IMG/VR virus record: IMGVR_UViG_3300027804_000021
Coordinates: 1 to 28,265 of that record
From: a virus
Taxonomy: Duplodnaviria > Caudoviricetes
Strand: one strand, 5' to 3'
Length of the DNA stretch: 28,265 nt
Both the position numbers and the translations under genes were made by a program. Below the pieces are notes generated by a model, which was not told where the DNA came from, did not search any database, and saw only the letters and a program-made list of their open reading frames with translations. Shown here in pieces: positions 14,144-18,846 of the stretch. Within the stretch, counting starts at the first letter, position 1, and each line of letters starts with the position of its first letter.

Positions 14144-14742
14144 TCTCCAAGAAAGCAATTGAGATGATTATTAAGCACGAAGTAGGTGGCAGAGCCGTTT
14201 ACGAGAAGCGTTATCAAAAGCCTATTTGGGCTGGTGGCGATTCAGGAGTAACAATTGGATTAGGGTATGATTGCGGTTATGTAACCGAAAAGCAGTTCTT
14301 TAGCGATTGGGATGGCTTAAATTTAAACTTTCTCAATGCGTTAAGGAAAGTAGTAGGGATAAAAGGTGAGGCGGTTAAAACGATGCTTAGAGGCGAAATT
14401 CTACAAGTTAGGATTCCATACAATTTTGCATACGATGTATTCGTTAATAAGTCGCTACCTAAATATTACGCATTAACTAAAAGTATTTATCCAGAGATTG
14501 ATACTTTAAACGAGGATACAAGAGGTGCTTTGGTTTCAATGATTTATAACAGAGGGAACAAATTAGAAGGCGAAAGGAGAAAAGAAATGAGGGCAATAGT
14601 TGACCTTGTTGCTAAAGCTGACTATGAAGGAATTGCTGACCAAATAGAGCGAAGCAAAAGACTTTGGGAGAATGTCGGCTTGGATGGATTGGTCAAACGT
14701 AGAGAGGAGGAGGCGGATTTAATTCTAAATTCACTAACCTAA
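14140..14742 (+). CDS. Endolysin, lysozyme-fold (pesticin-like/GH24-related) muramidase
   Basis: HE...GGDSGVTIGLGYD, ALVSMIYNRG and GLVKRREEEA motifs. Confidence 0.88.
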   Translation: MISKKAIEMIIKHEVGGRAVYEKRYQKPIWAGGDSGVTIGLGYDCGYVTEKQFFSDWDGLNLNFLNALRKVVGIKGEAVKTMLRGEILQVRIPYNFAYDVFVNKSLPKYYALTKSIYPEIDTLNEDTRGALVSMIYNRGNKLEGERRKEMRAIVDLVAKADYEGIADQIERSKRLWENVGLDGLVKRREEEADLILNSLT

Positions 14743-14751
14743 AATAAACCA

Positions 14752-15792
14752 ATGCCAACAACAAAAAACAAAGGTGGAAGCAAAACCACTATGAGCGGTC
14801 AGATAGTCTTAGACTATTTAGCCAAGTATCCTCAATGGATGCCCTCAAACACTTTAGCTTCTTTGATTATGAAGGAGCAATCTGCACACTTTGACAATCA
14901 AGAAAACGTTAGATACTTGATAAGATATTACAGAGGTAAAGTCGGAGAGGATAGAGCATCAAGAGGAAAGAACACACAATTTTTAGAAGATTTTAAGCGT
15001 ACAGGTTCACACTTTGTTCAGCCACCTACTTGGGTAGAGGAGAAAGTAGTTTATTGTTTGCCAATAGGAATTAAGAAGATGGGATTTATAAGTGATTTGC
15101 AAGTTCCTTTCCACGACCCAAAAGCGATTGATGTTTGCTTTAAATACTTAAACGAACAAAAGATTGATTCATTATTTATCAATGGTGATTTGGTTGATTT
15201 CTATCAGTTAAGCGACTTCCAGAAAGACCCAAGAGTTAGAAAGTTTGATGAGGAGTACGAGGCTATTATTGAGATGCTTGGATTTATAAGAGCAAGTTTT
15301 CCTCAAATACCTATTTACTACAACTTAGATGCGAATCACGAATTTAGGTATGAAAGGTATATGCGAACCAAAGCACCTGAATTATTAGGGTTAAACGGAA
15401 AGTTTGACATTGAGGAAATCTTAATGCTAAATACTTTTAACATCATTCCGATTAAAAACATAGATCACGTTAAGTTCGGAAAATTACCTATCATTCACGG
15501 AGATACAACATTTAGAAGGGGTAGCGGTGTAAACCCAGCTAAAACCCTTTACGATAGAGTTAAGCAGTCGGCAATAGCTTCTCACGTTCATCAAGTGCAA
15601 TCTTACACAACCAAGAATCAATTTGATGAAGAAGTATTTACTTGCTGGACCACAGGACATTTGATGCATCCAAACGTAGAATATTGTAAGCACGTTGATA
15701 ATTATTCACAAGGGTTTGCCATATTAGAAAAGGATGTAGAGGGTTATTATTCAGTTCAAAATAAAAGAATCTATAAAAACAAAATATTCTAA
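14752..15792 (+). CDS. Calcineurin-like metallophosphoesterase with N-terminal extension
   Basis: ISDLQ, NGDLVD, ANHE, HGD and SHVH motifs in the canonical order. Confidence 0.85.
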   Translation: MPTTKNKGGSKTTMSGQIVLDYLAKYPQWMPSNTLASLIMKEQSAHFDNQENVRYLIRYYRGKVGEDRASRGKNTQFLEDFKRTGSHFVQPPTWVEEKVVYCLPIGIKKMGFISDLQVPFHDPKAIDVCFKYLNEQKIDSLFINGDLVDFYQLSDFQKDPRVRKFDEEYEAIIEMLGFIRASFPQIPIYYNLDANHEFRYERYMRTKAPELLGLNGKFDIEEILMLNTFNIIPIKNIDHVKFGKLPIIHGDTTFRRGSGVNPAKTLYDRVKQSAIASHVHQVQSYTTKNQFDEEVFTCWTTGHLMHPNVEYCKHVDNYSQGFAILEKDVEGYYSVQNKRIYKNKIF

Positions 15793-15793
15793 T

Positions 15794-15985
15794 ATGAGAT
15801 ACCCAAAAAACTTCGCAAAATTGAACGCACTACAACAAGAGCAATGGTTGGTTTCTAAGTTACAAGAAATACACCAATTAGAACAAGAGATTAAGATTAC
15901 ATTAGGCAAGATAAGAGGTGGCGAAACTTTAATATTTAAAGAAATAGACAGACCAGATTTAGCACTAATGAAAGATGAAAATTAA
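15794..15985 (+). CDS. Hypothetical protein
   Basis: Tightly packed ORF between neighbours. Confidence 0.65.
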   Translation: MRYPKNFAKLNALQQEQWLVSKLQEIHQLEQEIKITLGKIRGGETLIFKEIDRPDLALMKDEN

Positions 15986-16244
15986 AGTAATACATAAGAA
16001 ACTTGGAAGGGAACAAGCACACGGCATTGCTGAAAGCGATGGTATTGTGTATATTGACTCACGGCTAAAGGGTAAAAAGCATCTGGAGATATTACTTCAC
16101 GAATGTATGCACTTGCTCAATCCAATAGATGAGGAGGAATCAATTGTAGACAAAAGTGTAACTTTATGTAATATTTTGTGGCAACAAGGTTACAGAAGGG
16201 TTGATAATTCAAACGATGTGCCATTGCAAGATGGTTCTAAATAG
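15975..16244 (+). CDS. Small HEXXH zincin-like metallopeptidase
   Basis: G.VYIDSRL....LEILLHECMH with a downstream acidic EEE. Confidence 0.7.
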   Translation: MKIKVIHKKLGREQAHGIAESDGIVYIDSRLKGKKHLEILLHECMHLLNPIDEEESIVDKSVTLCNILWQQGYRRVDNSNDVPLQDGSK

Positions 16245-16260
16245 TTGTTGGTTCATAGTT

Positions 16261-16287
16261 CCCCACCCCGCAAAGGTGGGGTTTTTT
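16261..16287 (+). terminator. Rho-independent terminator ending the lysis/accessory block
   Basis: CCCCACC-CCGCAAA-GGTGGGG followed by T6. Confidence 0.9.
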
Positions 16288-16290
16288 ATA

Positions 16291-16298
16291 TATATTTG
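16291..16298 (+). promoter_or_regulatory. -7 promoter box TATATTTG for a short non-coding unit
   Basis: TAnnTTTG located between two terminators. Confidence 0.6.
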
Positions 16299-16301
16299 TG
16301 A

Positions 16302-16359
16302 TTCATATTGGTTTAACTTAGGTTTAGCCACCCTTTTAGTCTTATTAGGGTGGTTTTTT
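16302..16359 (+). ncRNA. Putative ~57-nt small antisense RNA
   Basis: Bounded by a -7 box and a terminator, has no ORF, and its 5' part is complementary to the start regions at 14752, 16761 and 18112. Confidence 0.55.
16326..16359 (+). terminator. Rho-independent terminator
   Basis: AGCCACCCT...AGGGTGGTT stem running into a T-run. Confidence 0.85.
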
Positions 16360-16370
16360 ATATAATGGAC

Positions 16371-16622
16371 AAAGTAAACCTATTATTTTACTTTAAGGCT
16401 TTAAAAGTAAATATATAACTTGACTTTTACCAAAATTATAAACTCTTGCTGTACCTAAATTATAATAATCTGCATGAAATTTTCTAATAATTCATGCAAA
16501 ATAGATGCAATTGAATATAAATAAGCGCAAAAGTGCAATATTATACTCTTTTAGATATAATTGTAACATAAATGCACTCAATATGTTACATAATGTGTCA
16601 TAAAACGCACTATTTGACACAT
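16371..16622. repeat. Array of distinct 24-30 bp inverted repeats
   Basis: Inverted repeats at 16371-16394, 16402-16429, 16471-16498, 16562-16590 and 16593-16622, plus a direct repeat at 16428/16452. Confidence 0.85.
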
Positions 16623-16702
16623 ATTTATCCCATATAAGTCAAATTATACCATTTATCCTTATTATTTGCCGTTCATCACATTTATTTAAAATACTTGCTT
16701 TG

Positions 16703-16736
16703 TTTGATAAAGTTATAAGTTTATACCCTATCTTTG
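16703..16736 (+). promoter_or_regulatory. Early promoter (TTTG ... TATCTTTG)
   Basis: TTTG at 16703-16706 and TATCTTTG at 16729-16736, upstream of the early gene block; spacer 22 nt. Confidence 0.7.
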
Positions 16737-16760
16737 ATTTCATAAACCAAAACAACCAAT

Positions 16761-16889
16761 ATGAACAGACTAAAAACTCCACAAGAGAAAGCAAACGAAC
16801 GCTATCAAGCTGAAAGCATCAAACCGATTTACGCATTTATTATTTTATGCGTGGCATTTATTATTACCGCAATCCTTCAAAACATTTAA
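16761..16889 (+). CDS. Small membrane protein (42 aa, not in the ORF track)
   Basis: MNRLKTPQEKANERYQAESIKPIYAFIILCVAFIITAILQNI; C-terminal TM; first ORF after the promoter. Confidence 0.75.
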   Translation: MNRLKTPQEKANERYQAESIKPIYAFIILCVAFIITAILQNI

Positions 16890-16891
16890 CT

Positions 16892-17062
16892 ATGAGCGCA
16901 ATTGATCTTTACATCAACACTTTAGAAACTAAATTATTAATTATGCCTAACGATGGCTATGTAAAAGAAACACTACAAGCGTGTTTAGACTTAGCAAAAG
17001 GCATTAAAGAAATCTATGAAAACCCTAATAACAACGTTAGTCAGTCAACAGATCAAGACTAA
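16892..17062 (+). CDS. Hypothetical protein (56 aa)
   Basis: ATG 16892 (AACTATG), just after the upstream stop, is preferred to 16847. Confidence 0.65.
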   Translation: MSAIDLYINTLETKLLIMPNDGYVKETLQACLDLAKGIKEIYENPNNNVSQSTDQD

Positions 17063-17234
17063 TTTACAAACCGAAGCCGACTCAAAAGGAGTAACCTTAA
17101 GTAAGTTGGTTTATAAAATCTTAAAACAATATGAGCAAACTAATCTATCAGGAGAAACAACTAAAGTTGCACAAAAGAGCAACAATGCTACTGGAACTCC
17201 TAAAACAAGCACAAGGAAGGCAAAATCTATTTGA
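17016..17234 (+). CDS. Ribbon-helix-helix-like DNA-binding protein
   Basis: Beta-strand followed by IKTNLQTEADSKGVTLSKLVYKILKQY, an Arc/CopG-like pattern. Confidence 0.55.
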   Translation: MKTLITTLVSQQIKTNLQTEADSKGVTLSKLVYKILKQYEQTNLSGETTKVAQKSNNATGTPKTSTRKAKSI

Positions 17235-17427
17235 GGCTGATTTATCGGAATGGAGGCGAGGATTGGATGATACAAGAACAATGATTAGCGAGGAGGACTT
17301 GTTAATTAAAATCGCAAGAATGAACGATTTACAAAAGAGAATCCTTAAAAGCTATCATTTTCTAATCTTAGACCTTTATACATTAACGGAGGAGTTTATG
17401 CTCCCAATAAACCTTTTACATTTTTAA
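17131..17427 (+). CDS. Hypothetical helical protein
   Basis: ACAATATG start context; fills the gap up to 17429. Confidence 0.6.
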   Translation: MSKLIYQEKQLKLHKRATMLLELLKQAQGRQNLFEADLSEWRRGLDDTRTMISEEDLLIKIARMNDLQKRILKSYHFLILDLYTLTEEFMLPINLLHF

Positions 17428-17428
17428 T

Positions 17429-17626
17429 ATGACACCAAAAGAAAAAGCAACAGAATTATATAATAAAATGTATGATTTTTCAATTTTTGATGAATCAGCT
17501 AAACAATGTGCATTAATAGCAGTAGAAGAAATATTAGACGAAATTCAAACATTTGAACTTGCTTGGGAATATCAATCTAAAATTGAATTTTGGAATAATG
17601 TTAAAAAAGAAATAGAAGAATTATGA
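17429..17626 (+). CDS. Hypothetical phage protein (MTPKEKA.EL type)
   Basis: Coupled ORF with AKQCALIAVEEI...FWNNVKKEI, a pattern I recall from Bacteroidota phages. Confidence 0.7.
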   Translation: MTPKEKATELYNKMYDFSIFDESAKQCALIAVEEILDEIQTFELAWEYQSKIEFWNNVKKEIEEL

Positions 17627-18060: not shown

Positions 18061-18092
18061 TTTGGTTATTAACACTAAACTAGTTAATTTTA
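18061..18092 (+). promoter_or_regulatory. Putative promoter TTTG-N20-TAATTTTA
   Basis: Good -33 box and spacing, with a one-mismatch -7 box; intergenic before bet. Confidence 0.5.
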
Positions 18093-18111
18093 AACTCTAA
18101 AACCAACCAAT

Positions 18112-18846
18112 ATGAGCGAACAACAACTGGCTAATAAGCCACAACTTTCGTACACGAAAGATCAAGTAGAGTTAGTAAAATCACAGATTGCTCCAGAAGC
18201 AACAGTTGACGAACTTAAACTCTTTCTTTATCAAGCCCAAAGAACAGGACTTGATGCTTTATCAAGGCAGATTTATTGCATCCACAGGAACGTTAAAACA
18301 CCAAACGGATGGGGTAAAAAAATGACAATCCAAACAAGTATTGATGGCTTCCGAGTTATCGCTGAAAGAAGCGGAAACTATGGTGGACAAAGCGAACCAA
18401 TTATTACCTACAAAGAAAATGGCGAAATCGAATCTTGCAAACTAACTGTATATAAGTTTAGAGGCGATATAAGATACGATGCAGCTACATCAGTAGTTTA
18501 TTGGGATGAATATGTTCAAAGAGATAAAGAAGGAAAGCCAATGGGTTTATGGTCCAAAATGGGCAGAGTTATGATACAGAAAGTATGCGAAGCAGTTTGC
18601 CTTCGTAAAGCATTCCCACAAGACCTTAGTGGACTTTACACAGGAGATGAGATGGCACAATCAACAGAGGAAACACCAGCTTACTTAAAGGCTCACGATA
18701 ACGTGGATGACTTAGAGTTAGCGATTGACCTATGTGTAAATACAACCGAATTGAGCCAACTTTACGCATTAAACAATGATATTGTAGAAAGAGAAGTAGC
18801 TAAGGAGATAACTAAATTATTTACCAAGAAAAAACAAACTCTATGA
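18112..18846 (+). CDS. bet: Single-strand annealing protein, Bet/RecT family
   Basis: ELKLFLYQAQRTGLD..SRQIY, IQTSIDGFRVIAERSG.Y.G and LRKAFP..LSGLY..DEM motifs. Confidence 0.92.
   Translation: MSEQQLANKPQLSYTKDQVELVKSQIAPEATVDELKLFLYQAQRTGLDALSRQIYCIHRNVKTPNGWGKKMTIQTSIDGFRVIAERSGNYGGQSEPIITYKENGEIESCKLTVYKFRGDIRYDAATSVVYWDEYVQRDKEGKPMGLWSKMGRVMIQKVCEAVCLRKAFPQDLSGLYTGDEMAQSTEETPAYLKAHDNVDDLELAIDLCVNTTELSQLYALNNDIVEREVAKEITKLFTKKKQTL

Follow-up and report, generated by a model that had tools for sequence, protein, structure and literature searches.

Does a short cassette without an open reading frame, enclosed by two intrinsic terminators between the late and the early genes of a Bacteroidota phage, produce a small RNA directed against start codons of the phage itself? 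The question is raised by the DNA analysed here (the window), a whole virus record of 28,265 bp in which a single strand codes for all genes and whose genome is circularly permuted or carries terminal repeats. The cassette is placed after the last late gene, ORF89, which lies directly upstream of it, and before the early region. Nearly all phage regulatory RNAs known so far come from enterobacterial, staphylococcal or Pseudomonas systems. In a 2025 review of phage-derived sRNAs the strings "Bacteroid" and "Flavobacter" never occur (PMC12197685), and full-text literature searches on Flavobacterium or Bacteroidetes phages found no such RNA.

Genomic setting and architecture of the cassette

Among cultured phages the best matches of the terminase are Bacteroides phages. 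Searches of 50,697 phage records (blastn of 15700-17300, tblastn of ORF89) returned no match to a cultured relative, and the only two genome matches of ORF89 are both Bacteroidota MAG contigs, one of which has the cassette. No integrase, recombinase, repressor, antirepressor or lysogeny gene was found among the window's genes, and no tRNA, tmRNA or attachment site within the window. According to a study on Bacteroidota sRNAs, the promoter -7 consensus of the phylum is TAnnTTTG, a -33 motif is not found in Flavobacterium, and start regions are A-rich and free of Shine-Dalgarno (SD) sequences (PMC7366714). Upstream regions in the window are A-rich, with an SD-like motif (judged by eye) at only one of 46 called starts. 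The following features, all on the + strand, were read from the window:

16245..16258, +: 3'UTR box of ORF89, directly before terminator 1; predicted second anti-start element
16261..16287, +: intrinsic terminator 1, end of the late operon; G+C-rich stem 16261-16281 with 6 GC pairs, then T-run
16291..16298, +: TATATTTG, predicted Bacteroidota sigma-A -7 box (TAnnTTTG) for the small RNA, read in the sequence
16301..16359, +: predicted small RNA of ~55-59 nt, putative start 16301 +/- 3; unpaired 5' part, then terminator hairpin
16302..16313, +: seed block 1, TTCATATTGGTT, antisense to -7..+5 of the target start codons
16317..16326, +: seed block 2, CTTAGGTTTA, by cofolding a predicted partner of the leader ahead of the start codon
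16326..16359, +: intrinsic terminator 2, end of the small RNA; hairpin 16326-16355, T-run to 16359
16729..16736, +: TATCTTTG, predicted early-promoter -7 box, which would leave a ~19-nt leader on the first early ORF
16754..16765, +: target site 1, start region of the 42-aa first early ORF (16761-16889); 12-nt exact complement
18091..18115, +: target site 2, RecT start codon with its leader (gene at 18112-18846); 11-nt exact complement plus leader block
14736..14753, +: metallophosphoesterase start region; 16/18 complement, not kept in relatives

As an earlier note on this DNA had described, the box at 16291-16298 sits between two terminators and opens a unit without an ORF. The only ORFs overlapping the cassette are mechanical (16201-16365 on the + strand, 16209-16331 on the - strand) and both cross hairpins; cassette lengths in relatives range from 59 to 75 nt and differ by non-multiples of 3. 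The cassette is without a conserved protein-coding frame. A minus-strand peptide seen by eye (ATG at 16306 plus 6 codons) was rejected, being too short and out of frame with the listed minus-strand ORF. The predicted RNA fold leaves the first 25 nt single-stranded, followed by a hairpin of -14.8 kcal/mol. The cassette looks like a Bacteroidota intergenic sRNA gene, with TAnnTTTG about 4-7 nt before the RNA start (promoter use is predicted) and a 3' intrinsic terminator. A -33 motif is absent from its promoter region. A scan for sigma-70-type promoters gave 28 sites against 27.4 expected, a kind of scan that is uninformative for Bacteroidota. Comparison of 15500-17500 with Rfam 15 (cmscan, E up to 10) matched no family; four sub-threshold matches belong to unrelated families, the best with E 0.39 and 26.6 bits, where the gathering score is 81.

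Such an arrangement might mean nothing specific: the tandem terminators would act as an insulator, and a conserved T/G-rich spacer between them would match A/C-rich starts by composition. In line with this, TAnnTTTG alone is not enriched in the window (54 observed, 45 expected); the weight of the box comes from its conservation in relatives.

Conservation in related loci

The viral collection holds at least 292 related viral loci, 80 of which were fetched via ORF89 and examined. In a test blind to the box (two terminators within 200 nt of the ORF89 stop codon), 57 of the 80 loci have two terminators downstream of ORF89, and TAnnTTTG lies between them in 56 of these 57; its background rate is 0.00105 per nt. 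Across 43 distinct cassettes the box columns T1, A2, T5, T6, T7 and G8 are invariant and both n positions vary. TCnTA within seed block 1 is likewise invariant across the 43, while seed block 2 is kept within clade A, the clade of the window, and has analogous ..GGTTT(T)A blocks in other clades. Terminator 2 is present in 43/43 as a hairpin of 8-13 bp with a T-run, built from 24 distinct 5' arms with compensatory stem variation and a mean energy of -13.9 kcal/mol versus -3.5 kcal/mol for shuffled sequences. These structural counts were tallied sequence by sequence and not through a covariance model, because MAFFT put the variable hairpins out of register. The hairpin of terminator 1 is also kept in relatives, with varying stems.

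One locus (L024) carries an additional cassette with the same boundaries from box to T-run, which fits modular transcription units. A supposed second cassette in clade C (L033 and L036; antisense match ~100 nt past the box) was dismissed as palindrome-rich intergenic region with neither box nor terminator. In 15 of 28 representative loci, chosen as distinct 5' parts and with crude ORF calls (ATG only, >=35 aa), an early -7 box stands 20-30 nt upstream of the first early ATG. The RecT target sequence can also persist where the RNA is absent: in relative G001, 97% complete, the RecT start region is unchanged, yet ORF89 is missing and no sense copy of the seed turned up with <=2 mismatches allowed.

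Pairing with early start regions

In the window, the claimed 12-nt exact complement to the start of the first early gene was recovered: 16302-16313 and 16754-16765 are exact reverse complements of each other, the latter spanning the ATG (16761) of the 42-aa ORF, with a cofold ddG of -18.2. An 11-nt match at the start of a gene that the earlier note took for bet is exact at 18105-18115, across the ATG (18112), but the gene belongs to the RecT family (Pfam PF03837). Both pairs were also found independently by a repeat search of the window. The counterpart of seed block 2 in the RecT leader is 18091-18100, with a 1-nt bulge in the cofold. CCAATATGA occurs 3x in the window against 0.18 expected, a count reached by 0/100 shuffles. 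Pairing with phage starts is also better than in shuffled controls, a comparison that the earlier note had suggested: the three best start-region duplex energies sum to -57.7 versus -40.3 +/- 4.0 for dinucleotide-shuffled RNA, a value reached by 0/400 shuffles.

Contiguous duplexes are short (9-13 nt) and lie in AT-rich sequence. Two observations would suit a purely compositional origin: shuffled seeds already have a mean longest complement of 8.7 nt, and the match at the metallophosphoesterase start is not kept in relatives. The latter 16/18 match, seen by eye, is present as the earlier note had it, yet it is not conserved: the duplex has -17.8 kcal/mol in the window versus -4.6 to -11.2 kcal/mol in relatives with a homologue. 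We have therefore rejected this start as a conserved third target, and its complement is probably fortuitous or lineage-specific.

The relatives speak against composition. Among the 28 representatives pairing reached z <= -2 relative to dinucleotide-preserving shuffles in 24, and in 23 the observed value was reached by at most 2/100 shuffles; excess pairing is absent from four (L022, L044, L065 and L051). In 20 of the 28, the start of the first downstream ORF ranks within the top three for pairing. Clades differ in their seed, and in every clade the seed is antisense to that clade's RecT start region. The matrix of mean duplex energies of seed on RecT start has a clear diagonal, with cognate values that average about -16.5 kcal/mol, namely -16.9 (A on A), -16.3 (C on C) and -16.9 kcal/mol (D on D) and non-cognate pairs at -7.2 to -10.7 kcal/mol, the exception being D on A at -14.6. 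In a blind search starting from the RecT start, conducted on 22 loci of 3.4-6.3 kb, the longest exact antisense match falls into the ~70-nt cassette (~1% of the locus) in 15, one of them in the T-run only; it falls into the 3'UTR box in 3 loci and elsewhere in 4. In a second set of 57 RecT-anchored loci the cassette takes 27 and the 3'UTR box 27, together 54/57, and 3 matches lie elsewhere. The compositional explanation is disfavoured by these comparisons, and we give it the least credence of all the readings considered.

The compensatory changes in related phages that the earlier note had envisaged are seen clade by clade, the seeds covarying with their own RecT start region. The change of seed between clades tracks the second codon of RecT (ATGAAC versus ATGCAA), and one locus compared with another (L044 versus L035) has a matching one-base insertion in the seed and in a target. 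This signal was counted without correction for phylogeny, and as the loci are related, it rests on ~3-5 independent clades and not on dozens of events. From the sequences, then, the architecture of the cassette, its conservation, its complementarity to early starts and the between-clade covariation can be read directly.

Covariation as such would also be expected if two DNA sites were bound by one protein. The repeats could accordingly be inverted operator copies or recombination sites on either side of the early regulatory region. Indeed, a palindrome-rich regulatory region of 440 bp lies between the 12-nt arms at 16302-16313 and 16754-16765. Against this, exact matches >=9 nt number 67 antisense versus 23 direct, a called ATG start is overlapped by 37/67 of the former versus 0/23 of the latter, copies near the cassette are always antisense and the copies always span ATG codons. 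The pairing also consists of two blocks, with clade-dependent bulges of 1-7 nt, which suits an RNA duplex but neither a protein site nor a crossover site. In addition, the phage encodes no recombinase or integrase among the genes identified, and inversion between the arms would disrupt RecT. A role at the DNA level is thus very improbable.

A real sRNA might still have host mRNAs as its main targets, in the course of host takeover, the phage matches being secondary and due to a shared start consensus. The seed holds the complement of AUGAA after A/C-rich sequence, which is a common A-rich, SD-less start context, and phage sRNAs often target host genes, as stated in the review (PMC12197685). 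Against this, seeds shift between clades in step with the phage RecT start, including its second codon. Moreover, the RecT start is the best or near-best among the phage start regions: out of 7-17 start regions per locus it ranks first in 15/22 loci (1.7 expected) and within the top three in 22/22 (5.0 expected). We regard host mRNAs as the main targets as improbable.

The 3'UTR box of the late operon

A second antisense box, overlooked in the earlier note, is located in the 3'UTR of the late operon. Its sequence is complementary to the ATG and the opening codons of RecT, and its TTCATAG core is kept in all clades. In 27/57 RecT-anchored loci the seventh base is C and the box complements the RecT start perfectly over 13 nt. 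In the window, the duplex of box and RecT start has -17.4 kcal/mol, a value reached by 3/60 shuffles. A -7 box after the ORF89 stop codon is present in clades D and E and absent from the window's clade A and from clade C. By its sequence the 3'UTR box is predicted to be a second anti-start element, although its association with the RecT codons could be linkage.

Proposed mechanism

We propose, with moderate confidence, that the cassette encodes a trans-acting anti-start sRNA which represses translation of early genes. The stand-alone RNA with a 5' part antisense to early starts, as put forward in the earlier note, finds strong comparative support in the conserved box, the unpaired seed, the variable terminator, the clade-specific covariation and the pairing in excess of shuffles. 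A Bacteroidota-type -7 box and an intrinsic terminator, both belonging to the cassette, would set the start and the end of the small RNA. Its unpaired 5' seed would then pair with the start regions of RecT and of the first early ORF and block their translation. As the start regions are A-rich and SD-less, a duplex that spans -7..+5, together with a leader block, should suffice to stop initiation. Since the 3'UTR box covers the RecT ATG and first codons, late transcription may add to the silencing of early proteins. In effect, RNA would here do the work of a translational repressor for early genes. That the box fires, where the RNA has its 5' end, that the effect is repression rather than activation, and the timing are points that we infer.

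An alternative scenario has the pairing act in cis, with the cassette as a leader or attenuator, or with a read-through late 3' end folding back on the early starts. Late transcripts do head towards the early region, because all genes are on one strand of a circularly permuted or terminally repeated genome; in clades A and C no promoter box belongs to the 3'UTR box, which is complementary to the RecT start all the same; and the c4 RNA of phage P1 shares a transcript with its target. Contigs from RNA libraries bear on this scenario weakly. Related contigs occur in 24 runs, four of which are RNA libraries represented by assembled contigs only. The RNA-library contigs are from relatives (85-99% alike over 15500-17500), give no ends or strand, and may be DNA; late genes, cassette and early genes are covered at similar depth. 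One of them, which may equally be DNA, joins 16230-16336, a variant terminator and 16644-16877 while skipping 307 nt of intergenic sequence, and so runs from terminator 1 through cassette and terminator 2 into the first early ORF. The RNA-library contigs are without cover over 16371-16638, a gap that is not evidence. For or against a discrete small RNA we give these contigs no weight. Against action in cis, two strong terminators in series are conserved, the -7 box is kept exactly ahead of the seed, the early genes own a -7 box before their first ATG in about half of the representatives (see above), and the cassette boundaries are modular, as in the extra cassette of L024. Action in cis is therefore unlikely, and a trans-acting anti-start RNA is the reading we retain.

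Taking this RNA one step further, virulent-type Bacteroidota phages may possess an RNA-only early shut-off, made of the 57-nt sRNA and the 3'UTR box, in which the non-cognate types A, C, D and others would behave like heteroimmunity groups in a shared cell; this extension is tentative and rather doubtful. The suggestions of the earlier note that the RNA substitutes for a repressor, gives superinfection immunity or targets host mRNAs are speculation.

Comparison with known systems

The closest analogues are the c4 RNA of phages P1 and P7 and the sRNA GibS of Bacteroides. According to the review, c4 is a phage antisense RNA, not of the cis type, that blocks translation of a phage mRNA by pairing around its ribosome-binding region; it uses several short pairing blocks, and its specificity shifts between related phages via matched changes in RNA and target (PMC12197685), all of which resembles the cassette. 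There are differences: c4 controls an antirepressor in temperate enterobacterial phages at Shine-Dalgarno sites (PMC12197685). It is processed from its target's own operon transcript, whereas promoter and terminator are predicted within the cassette itself. The cassette is predicted to mask the start codon itself in an SD-less system, its targets are RecT and the 42-aa ORF, and it resides in a phage in which no lysogeny genes were found. Unlike the cassette, which has no Rfam match, the C4 family is listed in Rfam.

GibS, a host sRNA of B. thetaiotaomicron, shares predicted traits of the cassette, namely a TAnnTTTG -7 promoter, an intrinsic terminator and a 5' seed that is AT-rich and unstructured. 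By pairing over start codons this seed represses target mRNAs, with Hfq not involved (PMC7366714). GibS is, however, host-chromosomal and longer and has metabolic targets (PMC7366714). The cassette has no sequence relationship to it, is phage-borne and ~57 nt long, and is predicted to be aimed at the phage's own early genes.

Other systems share single traits. RegA of phage T4 is a protein that shuts off several early mRNAs late by occupying their start-codon regions; the functional logic is the same, but the proposed effector here is an RNA plus an mRNA 3'UTR. CpxQ and DapZ are 3'UTR-derived sRNAs of enterobacteria with a seed just before the mRNA's terminator hairpin. The box at 16245-16258 is likewise placed just upstream of its mRNA's own terminator hairpin, but it is a predicted element, with a -7 box after the stop codon in clades D and E only. 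The sar RNA of P22 and the OOP RNA of lambda are transcribed opposite their target strand and are fully complementary to the target, in contrast to the cassette, which lies on the same strand as its targets, 0.45 and 1.8 kb upstream of them, and has partial complementarity in two blocks. All are small phage antisense RNAs that lower (or, for the cassette, would lower) expression of phage regulatory or early genes; according to the review sar interferes with initiation of ant translation, and its table enters OOP as a cis RNA and sar as a trans RNA (PMC12197685).

Significance

If our reading is true, the cassette would represent the first phage sRNA family for Bacteroidota phages; these phages are abundant in freshwater, as reflected by the related loci counted above. 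It would also be a clean natural case of start-codon masking within a phylum whose translation begins without Shine-Dalgarno pairing, and the orthogonal pairs of RNA and start region in clades A, C and D would be candidate programmable translational switches for Bacteroidota. Finally, the finding raises a testable question for the biology of these phages, namely how small, single-strand-oriented phages without an obvious repressor may time the passage from early to late expression.

Genome organization and likely host

The window carries terminal repeats, equals the entire virus record of 28,265 bp and has a GC content of 34%. PHROG and Pfam scans yielded the layout below, in which all credible genes lie on the + strand; neither an integrase nor a CI-type repressor was found in the window by these scans, and the window holds no tRNA or tmRNA.

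Gene layout of the window
22863, +, terminase (late block)
after terminase, portal, protease and HK97-type capsid (late block, which continues past the record ends with connector and tail genes)
14140, +, endolysin (late block)
14752, +, metallophosphoesterase (late block)
15975-16244, ORF89, second of two small ORFs closing the late block
16761, +, 42-aa ORF, opening the early block; several small ORFs follow
17623, +, DnaA-C-like HTH protein (early block)
18112, +, RecT (PF03837; early block)
early block, replication or primosomal protein, NinG/Rap, ParB-like nuclease

A Bacteroidota host is likely, because the best cultured-phage matches of the terminase are Bacteroides phages (39% identity), the prokaryote genome collection yielded just two relatives of ORF89, both on small contigs of Bacteroidota MAGs, and the genes are preceded by A-rich sequence, with a Shine-Dalgarno-like motif seen by eye at only 1 of 46 called starts.

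An HExxH motif is present in ORF89 (89 aa), which matches no family in Pfam or PHROG. Its relatives number at least 292 in the viral collection; 50,697 cultured-phage records contain none. It is nearly always the final late gene, with the cassette (16291-16359) immediately after it. The following ~370 bp (16360-16728) are AT-rich, non-coding and contain several palindromes (e.g. 16471-16498); their length is strongly variable among relatives (307 nt are skipped in one relative's contig), and they likely represent an origin or operator region. Further downstream, 16736-16750 (in the early mRNA's predicted 5' leader) and 17106-17120 (just upstream of an ORF starting at 17131) form a 15-nt pair (93% complementary) on one transcript.

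Architecture and conservation of the cassette

Direct reading of the sequence confirmed all coordinates of the earlier note, which had proposed an sRNA antisense to several start-codon regions.

Elements after ORF89
16245-16258, +, 3'UTR box, before terminator 1, antisense to the RecT ATG and first four codons
16261-16281 plus T-run, +, terminator 1, closing the late operon
16291-16298, +, TATATTTG box, after terminator 1
16326-16355, T-run to 16359, +, terminator 2 hairpin, ending the unit

The 25 nt following the TATATTTG box, which include the seed, are unpaired in the predicted fold. Judged from its sequence, the cassette is built like a small transcription unit: a -7 box of Bacteroidota type precedes a short unstructured RNA, which an intrinsic terminator closes. 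This agrees with validated Bacteroides intergenic sRNAs as described in the available text of PMC7366714, according to which the -33 motif was not recovered in Flavobacterium. The TAnnTTTG box alone is not significantly enriched across the window (54 matches vs 45 expected), and no Rfam family matches the cassette region.

Related loci were collected with ORF89 as anchor (80 loci returned of the at least 292 viral relatives, 66-100% identity). In 57 of the 80 loci, a terminator finder ignoring the box detected two terminators in the first 200 nt after the ORF89 stop, and TAnnTTTG lies between both in 56 of these 57; in the exception, L055, the box is visible by eye and the finder chose other hairpins. 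The remaining 23 loci show a different gene or arrangement following ORF89. A pattern-based set (52 loci plus the window) gave 43 distinct cassettes with 31 distinct unpaired 5' parts. The aligned cassettes all share the fixed box letters T, A, T, T, T, G and vary at the two middle positions; since the selection pattern itself demanded the box, the box-blind 56/57 is the fair count. A TCnTA core lies 2-7 nt downstream of the box, and all 43 cassettes end in a hairpin of 8-13 bp and a T-run, with 24 different hairpin 5' arms and a mean of -13.9 kcal/mol (vs -3.5 shuffled).

In one locus an additional ~80-nt cassette with the same boundaries (L024:3318-3397) is placed ahead of the canonical one, after terminator 1; it consists of TATATTTG, an unrelated ~60-nt body lacking the CAT anti-start core, a hairpin and a T-run. 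The terminator 2 loop (window 16334-16347) is conserved while stems vary, reading ..TTTAGTCTTATT.. in many cassettes of seed clades A and F and TTTCTA in C, D and E. The window's loop and codons 4-6 of the 42-aa ORF form an inverted repeat (73% over 26 nt), a complementarity not cleanly retained in relatives.

Predicted pairing with start regions

As the earlier note had observed, 16302-16313 is the exact reverse complement of 16754-16765, spanning the ATG of the 42-aa ORF, and 11 seed bases recur over the ATG of RecT ("bet" in that note; 18105-18115). The window contains three copies of CCAATATGA (0.18 expected; 0/100 shuffles reach three), namely at both these starts and on the minus strand of the seed (16303-16311). 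Added together, the three most stable start-region duplexes give -57.7 kcal/mol, a value reached by 0/400 dinucleotide-shuffled RNAs (-40.3 +/- 4.0). In cofolds of the window, 16302-16313 pairs with -7..+5 of each target and 16317-16326 with a leader block (18091-18100 for RecT), at a ddG of about -18 kcal/mol for RecT and the 42-aa ORF alike. The phosphoesterase start, also put forward as a target, was left out of the target count because it pairs well in the window only (-17.8 vs -4.6 to -11.2 in relatives).

In 28 representative loci, which differ in their 5' parts and have 1.4 kb or more of sequence downstream, we added the energies of the two strongest duplexes that the unpaired part forms with called start regions (-25..+15) and compared the sum with dinucleotide shuffles. 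The observed score was reached by at most 2/100 shuffles in 23 loci; four loci (L022, L044, L065, L051) showed no excess over these shuffles. Exact matches of at least 9 nt were antisense in 67 cases vs direct in 23, and 37 of the 67 vs none of the 23 overlap a called ATG. Among the 7-17 start regions per locus, that of RecT ranked first in 15 of 22 loci (1.7 expected at random) and within the top three in all 22 (5.0 expected), and the first ORF downstream of the unit was within the top three in 20 of 28. A role of the matches as DNA-level sites instead of an RNA duplex is disfavoured by their strict antisense orientation, their overlap with the ATG and the pairing in two blocks with bulges.

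A blind search for the longest exact antisense match to the RecT start region covered 22 loci, of each of which the cassette makes up ~1%. The match fell inside the cassette in 15 (in L076 in the T-run only) and in the 3'UTR box in three, plus L024, where the extra cassette displaced the search window; the rest lay elsewhere. In a RecT-anchored sample (80 loci returned, 75-100% RecT identity, partly shared with the ORF89 set), 57 loci had at least 3 kb upstream. Here 27 loci had their longest match in the cassette seed, between box and terminator, and 27 others had theirs, a perfect one of 13 nt, in the 3'UTR of ORF89 immediately ahead of terminator 1; in three (L089, L112, L091) it lay elsewhere. 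L089 and L112 possess a cassette. The third, L091, has none; neither ORF89 nor a sense copy of the seed (up to 2 mismatches) is present anywhere in its 33-kb record (97% complete). Its RecT start region is nevertheless identical, so that the RecT target sequence is not strictly dependent on the RNA. In this record (G001, 33,113 bp) RecT is 84% identical and minus-strand ORFs lie upstream. Since RecT and the same start region occur there without ORF89 or seed, the RecT module appears to move between phage backbones.

Covariation of seed and RecT start

Seed clades
A (the window's), TTCATATTGG..CTTAGGTTTA
C, TCATAGAC..TAATGGTTT
D, TTCATATTGCATAG..TAAGGTTTT
further clades, E and F (short form)

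The start region of the RecT orthologue differs by clade and fits its own clade's seed each time. In clade A, RecT CCAATATGAA pairs with the seed; in clade C, the leader block and TATGAA do so (L047: 12 + 6 nt, one bulge, -20.5 kcal/mol); in clade D, RecT starts with ATGCAA and the seed has TTGCATAG.

Mean duplex energies (kcal/mol) of sRNAs with RecT starts of clades A, C and D
clade A sRNA: A -16.9, C -10.2, D -9.2
clade C sRNA: A -9.8, C -16.3, D -7.2
clade D sRNA: A -14.6, C -10.7, D -16.9

The value of -14.6 arises because D RNAs keep the TTCATATTG head. L035 and L044 are distinguished by a one-base insertion (T) in the seed and another (A) in a target. Chance pairing driven by base composition is disfavoured by these cognate vs non-cognate energies, by scores at least 2 SD below shuffles in 24 of the 28 loci, and by blind RecT-start searches ending in the cassette (15/22) or in cassette or 3'UTR box (54/57).

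A natural seed variant with a shorter predicted duplex occurs in L120:2784-2875 (= L012), where TTACATATTGG replaces TTCATATTGG; the extra A in the TTCAT core faces the start and second codon.

A putative second anti-start box

The 3'UTR box exists in a C variant, a perfect 13-nt complement, and a G variant; it is also present at the same place in L005, L019, L020 and the 27 RecT-anchored loci. Box and RecT codon variants are strongly associated.

3'UTR-box variant by RecT start (67 loci)
ATGAACGAACAA: C 32, G 1
ATGAACGAGCAA: C 3, G 0
ATGAATGACCAA: C 5, G 11
ATGAGCGAACAA: C 0, G 15

Linkage may explain this association, as box and RecT start are only 1.5-2.5 kb apart. Pairing clearly exceeds shuffles for the C variant only (0/60 reach it); 3/60 reach that of the window, and clades C and D give a mixed picture. 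Some 10-18 nt beyond the ORF89 stop, loci of clades D and E (L056, L057, L070, L074, L076, L079) have a TATCTTTG box, so the stretch ending in terminator 1 may act in these clades as another small-RNA gene in tandem. This stretch also holds TTCATAG and ..GGTTT ahead of the hairpin.

Discussion

The closest functional analogues of the cassette appear to be c4 RNA of P1 and P7 and host sRNAs such as GibS. With c4 the proposed sRNA would share pairing in trans, several blocks at the ribosome-binding region and type specificity, and with GibS a 5' seed spanning start codons. It belongs to neither family, given no Rfam match, other targets and biogenesis, and no lysogeny context; nor is it a cis-antisense RNA like sar and OOP. 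Full-text literature searches, judged from listings and abstracts, turned up no sRNA described as encoded by phages of Bacteroidota or Flavobacterium, and the accessible part of a 2025 review (PMC12197685) mentions neither taxon.

Architecture, conservation, complementarity and clade-wise covariation are directly visible in the sequences compared. In the mechanism we propose, the TAnnTTTG box would be active as a promoter, the RNA would start at ~16301, a free ~57-nt RNA would accumulate, and its duplex over -7..+5 and the leader block would block 30S binding. The anti-start blocks could instead work in cis on read-through transcripts with no need for a free sRNA. We consider this improbable: the early genes seem to have their own putative -7 box 20-30 nt upstream of the first ATG (15/28 loci; window 16729-16736), which argues against the cassette as a mere early leader. 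That host mRNAs are the main targets of the sRNA is very unlikely.

The cassette is a real, conserved and, in the literature searched, previously undescribed small-RNA-type element, and comparative analysis supports the anti-start reading of the predicted sRNA well. Repression of the targets is the expected outcome of pairing, because start regions in SD-less systems need to be unstructured (PMC7366714, available text). All late transcripts would carry the 3'UTR box, and late transcription may thereby reinforce the shut-off of RecT.
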